DNA from: Firmicutes bacterium UBA4795
Lineage (GTDB): Bacteria; Bacillota; Desulfotomaculia; Desulfotomaculales; Nap2-2B
Length of the DNA stretch: 64,000 bases
Reading direction: 5' to 3'
NCBI GenBank assembly: GCA_002402825.1
Contig: DHGP01000004.1
Location: forward strand, 19,259 to 83,258
Positions within the stretch are counted from its first letter, which is position 1, and each line of letters opens with the position of its first letter. Shown piece by piece: positions 41,125 through 48,431 of the stretch. Made by a program: the position numbers and the translations under genes. The notes under the pieces are model-generated. The model had not been told where the DNA came from. It saw only the letters and a list, made by a program, of their open reading frames with translations, and did no database searches.

Positions 41125-41991
41125 ATGTACTGTGTGGATTATCATATTCACCCAGGTTATTCGGTGGACGCGGAAGATGTTAGTCTTTTTGCTTACTGTT
41201 ACCAGGCGCTACAATTGGGTTTAAAAGAGATTTGCTTCACCCCCCATCTTGAAGTAGATCCCGCCAGGCGGCATCTAGATTGGTTTGTAAGGGTTAACGG
41301 CTGTCGTTACCCTATGGAACATAATTACTGGTTAGATAAATATTTTCTTGAACTGGATCAGGTTAAGCAACAGTTTAAAACTGCCCAATTAAAGATTAAA
41401 GCAGGTATAGAAGTAGGCTTTGAAAAGGGACACGAAAAGGAAATTGAAAAAATACTGGCTAATTATCCCTTTGATTTTGTTTTGGGTGCGGTTCACTGTC
41501 TGGAGCACAAAGCCATATCTTCAGCAAGTGAATGTGAGGAATATTTTGCTTCGCGTAGCTTAACCCACGTAATTAAAGAGTATTTTACCACACTTGAATT
41601 AGCTGTCAAGACCGGCCTTTTTGATAGTATGGCCCACTTTGATCTTTACCGGCGTTTCGGCGTAAAATTTTTTGGTCCCCAAATCTTAGAGGCCCACCAT
41701 GGCTTAATAGAGCCTGTCTTTGCGGAAATGGCAAAAAGAAGAACAGGATTGGAACTTAACACCTCTGGTATTCGCCGGGGCCTGACGGAATTTCACCCTG
41801 GCAAGGACATCCTCTTGTTAGCCAGGGAAAACGGAATAAATATTTTTACCATTGGCTCTGACGCTCACCAGTTAAAAGATTTAGGGGACCATGTGCTTCA
41901 GGCGGTAGCTCTTTTAGATCAATTAAAACTACCGGTGCATATTTTTACCGCACGCCATCCGTTTGAGATTTATGAAGAAATTTGTTTCTGA
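41125..41991 (+). CDS. PHP-domain histidinol-phosphatase family protein (HisJ-like)
   Basis: DYHIHPGYS at the N-terminus, GAVH, and GSDAH near the C-terminus. Confidence 0.75.
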   Translation: MYCVDYHIHPGYSVDAEDVSLFAYCYQALQLGLKEICFTPHLEVDPARRHLDWFVRVNGCRYPMEHNYWLDKYFLELDQVKQQFKTAQLKIKAGIEVGFEKGHEKEIEKILANYPFDFVLGAVHCLEHKAISSASECEEYFASRSLTHVIKEYFTTLELAVKTGLFDSMAHFDLYRRFGVKFFGPQILEAHHGLIEPVFAEMAKRRTGLELNTSGIRRGLTEFHPGKDILLLARENGINIFTIGSDAHQLKDLGDHVLQAVALLDQLKLPVHIFTARHPFEIYEEICF

Positions 41992-45846: not shown

Positions 45847-45978
45847 TTATTTCCTTAAAGCTTTTGGTACCTCAGGCTGATATAATATTAAACTACAAGC
45901 CGGCTTTATACTTCCACAGGCAATAACCACTAGACTGCTAAAAAGAACGGGTAAAAGTTTATAGTAAAGGCGCTTCAT
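45847..45978 (-). CDS. agrD: AgrD-type autoinducing peptide precursor (43 aa), not in the ORF track
   Basis: The ATG lies 8 nt after AAAGGAGGG. Translation: MKRLYYKLLPVLFSSLVVIACGSIKPACSLILYQPEVPKALRK. The C28-x4 then xxPEVPKAL arrangement has the same Cys-to-EVP spacing as staphylococcal AgrD. It overlaps the agrB 3' end by 20 nt. Confidence 0.8.
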   Translation of the reverse strand: MKRLYYKLLPVLFSSLVVIACGSIKPACSLILYQPEVPKALRK

Positions 45979-46612
45979 TTCTTTTTCCCTCCTTTCTTAA
46001 TTTAAAATTATCCGTAAAAGTGGCAAACCAATGCCCGGCTTTGGTTAAAGTAAAGGCTTGCCACCACAGACCTAAACTTAAGGCTAAAACAATAGCTAAG
46101 GCTTGTCCTTTTATTAAAAGAAAAGCCTGCCCCATGGCAAGTAAAAAAACAGCGCTAATAGAAAAAAAACGCAGTTTTTTGCGCTGTTCCAGGGAAGTGA
46201 TTGGTTTAGCCGGAGAATCTACCGGGGCTAAGCGCCAGATAATAATTAAAGATAATATAAGACCCGGGGCAACTATTAAAAATAAACTTAAAAGAGTAAA
46301 AAGGGGAGCGGTAATGGCGGCTATTTTTCCTAATAAAGGAACCATGACCATCCCCAGTAAGGTACAGGTTAAAGGAGAGTTGCTGTGCGCCCCCCCGGTA
46401 AAAAGACGCAGGCCGGCCGCCGTCAAACAGACCGCTAGAGTGGTCCAAAAGCAGCCTAAAAGCCAGCCCCCCAAACAAATAGTCAAAAAGCCGGTAAGGG
46501 TGTATATAATTATTTGCAGCCCGTAGAGGGCTACCTCTTCTTCAGCCGGCGTTAAATTTAATTTTTCTTTTAAATAAGCCGCGGTGCTTTTAGTAAAGTT
46601 AAGCTTTAGCAA
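45959..46612 (-). CDS. agrB: AgrB-family accessory gene regulator B (AgrD-processing membrane peptidase)
   Basis: The catalytic His/Cys pair is in FTGGAHSNSPLTC, with the Cys at His+7 as in S. aureus AgrB. The basic loop is PAKPITSLEQRKKLR. It is polytopic. The start is TTG after AAGGAAA. Confidence 0.85.
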   Translation of the reverse strand: MLKLNFTKSTAAYLKEKLNLTPAEEEVALYGLQIIIYTLTGFLTICLGGWLLGCFWTTLAVCLTAAGLRLFTGGAHSNSPLTCTLLGMVMVPLLGKIAAITAPLFTLLSLFLIVAPGLILSLIIIWRLAPVDSPAKPITSLEQRKKLRFFSISAVFLLAMGQAFLLIKGQALAIVLALSLGLWWQAFTLTKAGHWFATFTDNFKLRKEGKRNEAPLL

Positions 46613-47436: not shown

Positions 47437-47464
47437 TTGCAGCTTTACTGCGCTATGGTATAAT
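47437..47464 (+). promoter_or_regulatory. candidate sigma-A promoter (extended -10) of the rpn-like gene
   Basis: TTGCAG, a 16-nt spacer, then TGgTATAAT, about 35 nt upstream of the TTG start. Confidence 0.5.
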
Positions 47465-47498
47465 TTAATTAACCTAAAAACGAAAGGACAAACGACTT

Positions 47499-48308
47499 TT
47501 GCCGGCAAAAGACATTTATGACCGCAGCCTGAAAATTTTAGCTAAACAGTACCCCAGACCTTTTATTAAATTAGCTCTTGACTCAACAGAAAATATAAAC
47601 ATTGAAACTATTGAAAACCCAGAAATTAACCTGCCGGAAAAGCGGCTTGATTTTGTTTATGGTCTTACGGATGAAGAACAGGAGTATATCCTGCACCTGG
47701 ATTTTCAGTTGCGCCACAAAAAAGAGTTGCCGAAGAGGATGCATATCTATAACGCTCTTTTGACGGCTAGCCATAATAAGCCGGTTATTTCCAAAGTAAT
47801 TTACCTGGAGCGAAGGGAATACCGTAATTTACCCCAAGAATATGTAGTAAGCTACCAGGGGAGGCGGGAGAATATTTTTACCTACCAGGCAATTAAACTC
47901 TGGGACTTAAAAGAACTAATTCTTGAAAGTGAGGATAAAAAATGGCAGGCCGAGGCATTGTCTTTAGCCGTTACGGTTGCCGGAAGGTATTTTCCCAAAG
48001 ACTTTTTACTGAAATTTTTTAAGGAGGAGATGAAAATGCTGCAGGAAGCAAGCATTGTGCAGGACTGGATAAATGAAGGTATGGAAAAGGGTATGGAAAA
48101 GGGTATGGAAAAGGGGCGAATTAAGACCTTGCAGGAAGATATTCTAGATGTTTTAGAAGAACGTTTTGGCATAATTAAAAAAGGTCTTGGCAAAAGGGTG
48201 AGAGCCATTAATGACCCAAGCGTGTTGAAATTCTTATTCAAAAAAAGCATCAAGGTGGCCAGCCCGGAAGAGTTTGCCATACTCCTGCAAGAGGCAGAAG
48301 AAGAATAA
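47499..48308 (+). CDS. Rpn/YhgA-like recombination-promoting nuclease / putative transposase (PD-(D/E)XK) with a DUF4351-like C-terminus
   Basis: The N-terminus is YDRSLKILAKQYP, and the nuclease core is RLDFVY....YILHLDFQLRH. The C-terminal helical region has a tandem GMEKGMEKGMEKG. There is an internal SD plus ATG at 48021-48038. Confidence 0.7.
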   Translation: MPAKDIYDRSLKILAKQYPRPFIKLALDSTENINIETIENPEINLPEKRLDFVYGLTDEEQEYILHLDFQLRHKKELPKRMHIYNALLTASHNKPVISKVIYLERREYRNLPQEYVVSYQGRRENIFTYQAIKLWDLKELILESEDKKWQAEALSLAVTVAGRYFPKDFLLKFFKEEMKMLQEASIVQDWINEGMEKGMEKGMEKGRIKTLQEDILDVLEERFGIIKKGLGKRVRAINDPSVLKFLFKKSIKVASPEEFAILLQEAEEE

Positions 48309-48325
48309 AAAGTTAAAGAACCTAG

Positions 48326-48419
48326 GATGTCAAGGGGAAGATGTCAAGGGGACAGGTACATTGACAGGATGCCGATGTCTAGGGGGTACCTGTCCCCTTG
48401 ACATGTGTCCCCTAGACAT
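48326..48419. repeat. cluster of five ATGTCWAGGGG 11-mers (three direct, two inverted) forming interleaved inverted repeats
   Basis: Copies start at 48328, 48341 and 48375 on the plus strand. The reverse copies are at 48394-48404 and 48409-48419. The 19-nt arms ATGTCAAGGGGACAGGTAC and GTACCTGTCCCCTTGACAT are perfect complements. Confidence 0.85.
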
Positions 48420-48431
48420 GGGTGTAAATGA

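Follow-up and report, generated by a model that had tools for sequence, protein, structure and literature searches.

The 64-kb stretch of DNA analysed here (the window) carries a gene that is probably a divergent RpnL/RpnS gene-within-gene module, in which a single reading frame would encode both a full-length RpnL-like protein of 269 aa and, from an internal start, an RpnS-like protein of 90 aa. In the E. coli rpn genes and in one C. difficile rpn gene, RpnS is made from an internal start (Zhong et al. 2023, PNAS, PMC10400941). RpnS neutralises the toxic RpnL nuclease, and RpnP2 defends against phage (PMC10400941). The mechanism has thus already been described in principle and Zhong et al. 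proposed broad conservation of the RpnL/RpnS arrangement (PMC10400941), so the window gene adds a member and is not a new mechanism. The features of the gene are listed below.

47437..47464, plus strand: likely cassette promoter (TTGCAG, 16 nt, extended -10 TGgTATAAT), read from the sequence rather than mapped
47482..47488, plus strand: weak Shine-Dalgarno (SD) sequence GAAAGGA of the full-length protein, 10 nt before the TTG start
47499..48308, plus strand: full-length ORF, RpnL-like, 269 aa, with a predicted N-terminal PD-(D/E)XK-type domain, a helical linker and a C-terminal module (hhalign, AF2)
47649..47708, plus strand: putative catalytic residues D51 ... D68-F69-Q70 (E-F-Q in many relatives)
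47907..47908, plus strand: junction of a 93-nt (31-codon) in-frame deletion, from the DNA alignment with paralogue L001 and the protein alignment
48021..48027, plus strand: internal SD AAGGAGG in codons K175-E176-E177; conserved, at a peak of anti-SD energy, unstructured
48036..48308, plus strand: predicted short ORF (RpnS-like, 90 aa) from M180 to the shared stop; start conserved in 41 genes
48078..48115, plus strand: three perfect 12-nt repeats GGTATGGAAAAG encoding (G-M-E-K)x3 (family D1), beginning 14 residues after M180
48111..48305, plus strand: DUF4351-like C-terminal helices, aligned with residues 255-313 of the PF14261-positive Moorella protein P0054; no direct Pfam match

A strong internal SD and an in-frame ATG in the window gene

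Around the internal site the window reads TTTTTTAAGGAGGAGATGAAAATGCTG. The arrangement that a sequence-only reading of this DNA had described is confirmed: AAGGAGG occupies 48021-48027, one ATG (48030-48032) lies 2 nt past the SD and another (48036-48038) 8 nt past it, and both are in frame with the 269-aa ORF that runs from the TTG at 47499 to 48308. Initiation at 48036 would yield the C-terminal product of about 90 aa that had been predicted, namely 90 aa that include GMEKGMEKGMEKG and end at the stop codon shared with the long form (48306-48308). Both ATGs had been put forward as candidates, and only the second stands: the start at 48036 is conserved, while the ATG at 48030 lies 2 nt from the SD and corresponds to M178, a residue that varies among M, L, F, I, V and T, and was rejected as a start. 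The local RNA around the internal SD forms no stable structure (z +0.92). A consensus scan for sigma-70 promoters on the plus strand inside the gene returned none, such scans being insensitive.

The window by itself does not bear out the earlier argument that chance is an improbable source of so strong an SD within a gene. AAGGAGG occurs there 17 times, against 11 +/- 3 expected; about 11 of the 17 copies sit at real gene starts, and four are intragenic, all on the minus strand (53273, 49879, 36094 and 32768). Because those four have no start codon nearby, the motif alone is weak evidence for an internal start. Three of them (49879, 36094 and 32768, minus strand) share the AAG-GAG-G reading frame with the internal SD of the rpn-like gene and serve as internal controls: AAGGAGG alone is no mark of an internal start. 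We estimate at ~0.3 the probability that one among about five intragenic sites would have an in-frame ATG at usable spacing by chance. The internal SD does nevertheless appear to be non-accidental, and it is conservation in homologues that indicates this.

The predicted internal initiation site is conserved across homologues

We assembled 45 genomic loci from Peptococcaceae, Desulfofundulus, Moorella/Neomoorella, Ammonifex and Chloroflexota/Anaerolineae, and the position homologous to M180 could be mapped in 41 genes. The sequence-only reading had named absence of the SD from homologues as one finding that would count against it; 41 of the 41 mapped genes, from Firmicutes to Chloroflexota, have an SD-like core (GGAGG or GAGGAG) and, past it, a start codon at residue 180 or 181. 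The start is ATG in 38 of these 41 genes, and all three genes without ATG (3/41) use TTG, another start codon. In 33 of the 41, 7 nt separate the GGAGG(A/T) core from the start. In six loci (L019, L024, L026-L028 and L031) the start is shifted one codon downstream and the SD likewise (GAG-GAG-GTG), and the spacing is therefore kept.

Codon usage at the site was analysed in 30 sequences dereplicated at <90% identity. At Glu176, 28 of 28 dereplicated sequences use GAG, while elsewhere, where Glu is conserved too, they take either GAG or GAA without restriction; overall, 51% of Glu codons are GAG (545 GAG, 521 GAA), and in the ten remaining conserved Glu columns the share is 24-70%. When 129 columns are ranked by codon constraint, Glu176 comes second, and E183 (GAA), A184 (GCA) and I186 (ATT), which lie just past the start, are in the top eight. 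The constrained codons past the start thus end in A or T and stand at positions +3, +4 and +6 of the short ORF, a pattern of constraint that fits a translation-initiation region. The anti-SD duplex-energy profile of the family has a single strong peak, at residues 174-176, with a mean of -11.2 kcal/mol against -2.6 kcal/mol (sd 1.8) over all columns, and the internal SD is the strongest anti-SD site within the gene in 14 of the 30 sequences. Because synonymous sites are constrained, the K-E-E residues alone do not explain the internal SD signal. Nominal p-values overstate the independence of the loci, which share phylogenetic history; taken across the family, the internal signals are conserved beyond protein-coding constraint, from Firmicutes to Chloroflexota.

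Two further observations concern other sites. The most codon-constrained column in the family is that of window residue R9 (47523-47525), which belongs to a conserved DRS motif near the full-length start; its codon is CGC in 18 of 27 sequences, against 19% usage overall, a constraint that may reflect mRNA structure or long-form initiation. At ~1840-1880 of locus L004, a second and more distant Rpn-like paralogue from Desulfofundulus thermobenzoicus (27% identity) likewise carries an ATG at the homologous position, with an SD-like GAGGTGA 6 nt ahead of it.

Profile comparisons point to a divergent branch of the Rpn superfamily

Scanned against Pfam and NCBIfam, the window protein and 22 relatives gave no qualifying match, with neither PF04754 nor PF14261 among the results, and TIGR01784 (Rpn family) scored the window protein at 25.2 bits, where its cutoff is 52.1. 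A database search found 55 homologues, mostly in metagenome-assembled genomes of Moorellales and Desulfotomaculales, some of which carry the NCBI name 'Rpn family'. A profile of 23 sequences (A1) aligned over its full length (285 columns) with P0054 of Moorella thermoacetica at an hhalign probability of 98.9% (E 3.6e-17), and P0054 is itself above the cutoffs of both PF04754 (31.1 > 21) and PF14261 (34 > 25). For scale, RpnA scores 305.9 bits on PF04754. Direct hhalign comparison of E. coli RpnA with the A1 profile was not significant, and a profile search against PDB sequences found nothing. PADLOC has no Rpn model (RpnA itself gives no match), and a PADLOC scan is uninformative for rpn. An exhaustive profile search recovered 120 representative clusters at E <= 1e-30 and 1,448 at E <= 1e-10, the ~120 clusters of the stricter set falling in Desulfotomaculia, Moorellia and Chloroflexota.

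Taken together, these comparisons make the window family a divergent branch of the Rpn superfamily, one that escapes current family models, and the kinship of its C-terminal region to DUF4351 (PF14261) appears to be remote. The labels 'Rpn-like' and 'DUF4351-like', used when the gene was first read, accordingly survive profile-profile comparison and fail against curated models. A tblastn match at 41194-41439, considered as a paralogue, was rejected as a chance match within a PHP-type phosphatase ORF.

The Rpn D...(D/E)xQ residues are retained in the family. D51, F69 and Q70 do not vary among 23 sequences, and position 68 holds D or E; D51, D68 and Q70 line up with D63, E82 and Q84 of RpnA in an otherwise non-significant alignment. 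The AF2 model of the full-length protein (pLDDT 72.5) has an alpha/beta N-domain, and Foldseek searches with it returned weak matches, mostly to PD-(D/E)XK nucleases (such as NucS, PaqCI, XisH, Hjc and BamHI). The short form is modelled with higher confidence (pLDDT 87) as a helix spanning residues 2-44 followed by three short helices. A search with this model did not retrieve the RpnAS crystal structure 7TH0; the model has four helices versus the three described.

The predicted short form carries a repeat of variable length

The published RpnS repeat has a four-residue unit in which one residue is hydrophobic and the other three are charged or Gly, and it begins 8-20 residues after the initiating Met (PMC10400941). 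Its number varies and sets RpnL-RpnS specificity (PMC10400941). The GMEK unit of the window gene, one hydrophobic residue with three charged or Gly residues, matches this published description. The window gene has 3 GMEK copies and paralogue L001, ~93-95% identical in flanking nucleotide sequence, has 5; across the family the number of units ranges from 0 to 10, and paralogues within one Peptococcaceae genome differ as well (5, 4+2 and 1). SD/start conservation, synonymous constraint and these repeat hallmarks support the idea from which the analysis started, that the gene may encode an internal C-terminal isoform of the RpnS kind.

Peptococcaceae bacterium SCADC1_2_3 holds at least 7 family copies (L001, L002, L006-L009 and L021). 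Because several of them sit on short contigs, the repeated copies seem to break the assembly.

A weak full-length start and the borders of the cassette

The likely promoter at 47437..47464 was missed by a simple promoter scan because its -35 element matches at only 3 of 6 positions; TGnTATAAT recurs upstream of L003, L004, L010, L011 and L016. The arrangement of GAAAGGA with a TTG start is also found in L001 and L004, and 12 of 14 Firmicute-clade loci begin the full-length protein with TTG or GTG. Such a weak full-length start fits an antitoxin made in excess.

Homology between the window gene and L001 extends from the -10 box to the stop codon only, and the gene therefore reads as a single-gene cassette lacking both terminal inverted repeats and shared flanks, as described for rpn. 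The distribution of the family is patchy and multi-copy, with one Peptococcaceae genome holding at least 7 copies. The neighbours of the window gene are agrB and the spoIIIAE-AH genes, which places it outside any defence island.

Two elements of the surrounding DNA are described here in their own right. The rpn and spoIIIAH genes converge, and between them, immediately past the stop codon of rpn, 48318-48428 can form a very stable long hairpin (-62.1 kcal/mol, z -7.05) composed of five copies of (G/C)ATGTC(A/T)AGGGG(A/G), three forward and two reverse, with no T-tract after it. The hairpin is absent from L001 and matches no Rfam family, and its motif is not linked to rpn elsewhere, the one exception being a single copy near the rpn locus of L004. 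On the other side of the gene, 45847-46612 (minus strand) is an AgrB gene (PF04647, 128 bits). At its 3' end an AAGGAGG (45994) is followed 9 nt downstream by an ATG that opens a 43-aa ORF ending ...ACSLILYQPEVPKALRK. The 43-aa ORF has no Pfam match; its position and sequence suggest an AgrD-type autoinducing-peptide precursor.

An in-frame deletion in the window copy and decay in the family

The segment missing at the 47907..47908 junction, YTxEIIAGELKELAPLLILLTxEKxxxVLxRS, is present in 22 of 22 aligned homologues and holds near-invariant I, G, L, P, L and L positions; it belongs to the RpnL-only part of the protein. The sequence-only reading had passed over this deletion. The deletion allele keeps the reading frame, the catalytic residues, the promoter, both starts, the short ORF and the three perfect repeats. 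The long protein of the window copy may be impaired by the deletion, and this copy may no longer be a working toxin-antitoxin pair. Short TAAAGA-like sequences flank the deleted segment in L001, which hints at a microhomology-mediated deletion event. An exact search of metagenome contigs for the deletion junction gave no match, and the allele stands without independent confirmation. When substitutions were polarised by lineage, the window branch had 12 non-synonymous and 11 synonymous changes and the L001 branch 6 and 9; in a dN/dS test of pseudogenisation on the window lineage these changes were too few to show relaxed selection.

Split and frameshifted copies are common in the family. In three members (P0145, P0161 and P0170) in-frame deletions have removed the nuclease domain and left the whole C-terminal module, with the first 7-55 conserved N-terminal residues fused just upstream of the internal SD/start region. 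These deletions end 2-13 residues upstream of the (K/R/S)-E-E...M site, which suggests that all three keep the internal SD, the start and the C-module. The three were chosen by a C-terminal profile match, and the deletion pattern is suggestive only. One route that these three and the window allele might together reflect, which we think unlikely, is that in-frame deletions recurrently disable or remove the nuclease and that selection keeps the internal SD, start and RpnS module, giving rise to orphan antitoxins. If this were true, orphan antitoxins could protect the cell against paralogous or incoming RpnL toxins whose repeat number equals their own. More generally, the deletion allele and the derivatives without a nuclease suggest a way in which an intragenic antitoxin may persist after its toxin is lost.

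A model for the module and its alternatives

In the model that we favour, the full-length RpnL-like nuclease would be made from a poor site, a TTG with the weak GAAAGGA SD, and a strong second site in the same frame (AAGGAGG, 8 nt, ATG 48036) would direct synthesis of the 90-aa RpnS-like protein, predicted to be a long helix with (GMEK)n repeats and a small helical DUF4351-like domain. By analogy with E. coli RpnA, RpnB and RpnP2, the short protein would bind the long protein at the helix that is identical in both, specificity depending on the number of repeats, and would keep the nuclease inactive until a trigger such as phage infection. Short-form translation, complex formation, toxicity and defence are steps that we infer.

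Two alternatives concern the short product itself. The SD-like sequence could be a by-product of a required Lys/Arg-Glu-Glu-x-x-Met peptide and of codon usage, with no internal initiation at all. Conservation of (K/R)-E-E and of M180 at the protein level is what this explanation would expect, and AAG-GAG-G lies in the same frame at three other intragenic sites of the window that have no start codon. A peptide requirement, however, does not account for a Glu176 codon fixed as GAG in 28 of 28 sequences while GAG and GAA alternate where Glu is conserved elsewhere, for the joint shift of SD and start with their spacing preserved, for the use of TTG in all three genes that lack ATG, or for the clustering of constrained A/T-ending codons past the start, and we consider it very unlikely. 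Alternatively, the internal start could be real and the short protein no antitoxin, acting for example as an HTH-like DNA-binding autoregulator or as an independent oligomerisation factor. HHpred relates RpnS to HTH motifs (Zhong et al., PMC10400941), the short form is 90 aa long compared with 49 aa for RpnAS, and no structural match to RpnAS was obtained. On the other hand, both forms share the helix that bears the repeats and their repeat numbers vary in step, which agrees with the published mechanism of RpnL-RpnS specificity, and a weak long-form start combined with a strong short-form start fits toxin-antitoxin stoichiometry; we hold a role other than that of antitoxin to be highly improbable.

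A third alternative is that the window copy is a decaying relic, in which the deletion has inactivated RpnL, neither product has a role and the translation signals are inherited from a functional ancestor. Several facts lean this way: the deletion takes near-invariant residues found in 22 of 22 homologues, many copies in the family are split or frameshifted, housekeeping operons lie on both sides of the gene, and non-synonymous changes weigh more heavily on the window lineage (12 to 11 synonymous) than on that of L001 (6 to 9). Yet the frame, the catalytic residues, the promoter, both starts and the three perfect repeats are intact and the substitution counts are too small to show relaxed selection, and decay of this copy strikes us as improbable. 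It would in any case bear on the window copy only and not on the family-level mechanism.

As a divergent RpnL/RpnS module, the window gene would extend the gene-within-gene principle to a clade missed by current models. The family offers comparative evidence for selection on the internal initiation site itself: one synonymous site is fixed, SD and start move together, and codons just past the start are constrained. Searching for signatures of this kind could reveal internal starts in further genes with no need of ribosome profiling. In annotation, two coding features should be recorded for each of these loci.

Comparison with known systems

The build of the internal site is the same in E. coli rpnA and in the window gene: the former reads AAG GAG AGT TTA ATG (K240, E241, M244) and the latter AAG GAG GAG ATG AAA ATG. 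In rpnA, the mutant K240R/E241D/M244L abolishes RpnAS (PMC10400941). Like E. coli RpnA-E and RpnP2, the window gene combines a predicted PD-(D/E)XK N-domain and the D...(D/E)xQ residues with an in-frame internal start whose SD is formed by Lys-Glu codons. It further shares with the E. coli Rpn proteins a variable four-residue repeat 8-20 aa after the Met, the single-gene cassette and the occurrence of several paralogues per genome. The window protein has no directly detectable sequence similarity to E. coli RpnA and, unlike RpnA, no PF04754 match. The short forms also differ: that of the window gene has 90 aa and, in the model, four helices, the first of 43 residues, and RpnAS has 49 aa and three helices. 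The E. coli rpn genes have an internal promoter, whereas none was detected in the window gene. Unlike E. coli Rpn, the window family has anaerobic spore-formers and Chloroflexota as hosts, and the window copy in addition has its 31-codon deletion.

Among proteins that Pfam does recognise, Moorella P0054 (YhgA-like plus DUF4351) comes closest, with a (GMEK/GIEK)n repeat and a 'REVEQML' Met at the homologous position, as in the window family; it is only ~23-29% identical and passes the Pfam cutoffs that the window family does not. The stand-alone RpnSs/DUF4351 small genes of the ypaA type consist of the C-module alone, as do P0145, P0161 and P0170. In the window gene, by contrast, the C-module is still embedded in a long ORF, and the stand-alone forms of the family appear as deletion products and not as duplicated downstream genes. 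Cas10d/Cas11d and other internal-initiation isoforms (cited in PMC10400941) likewise derive two proteins from one frame by an internal start, as proposed for the window gene; products of the Cas10d/Cas11d type cooperate, whereas the short form of the window gene would be expected to antagonise the long form.
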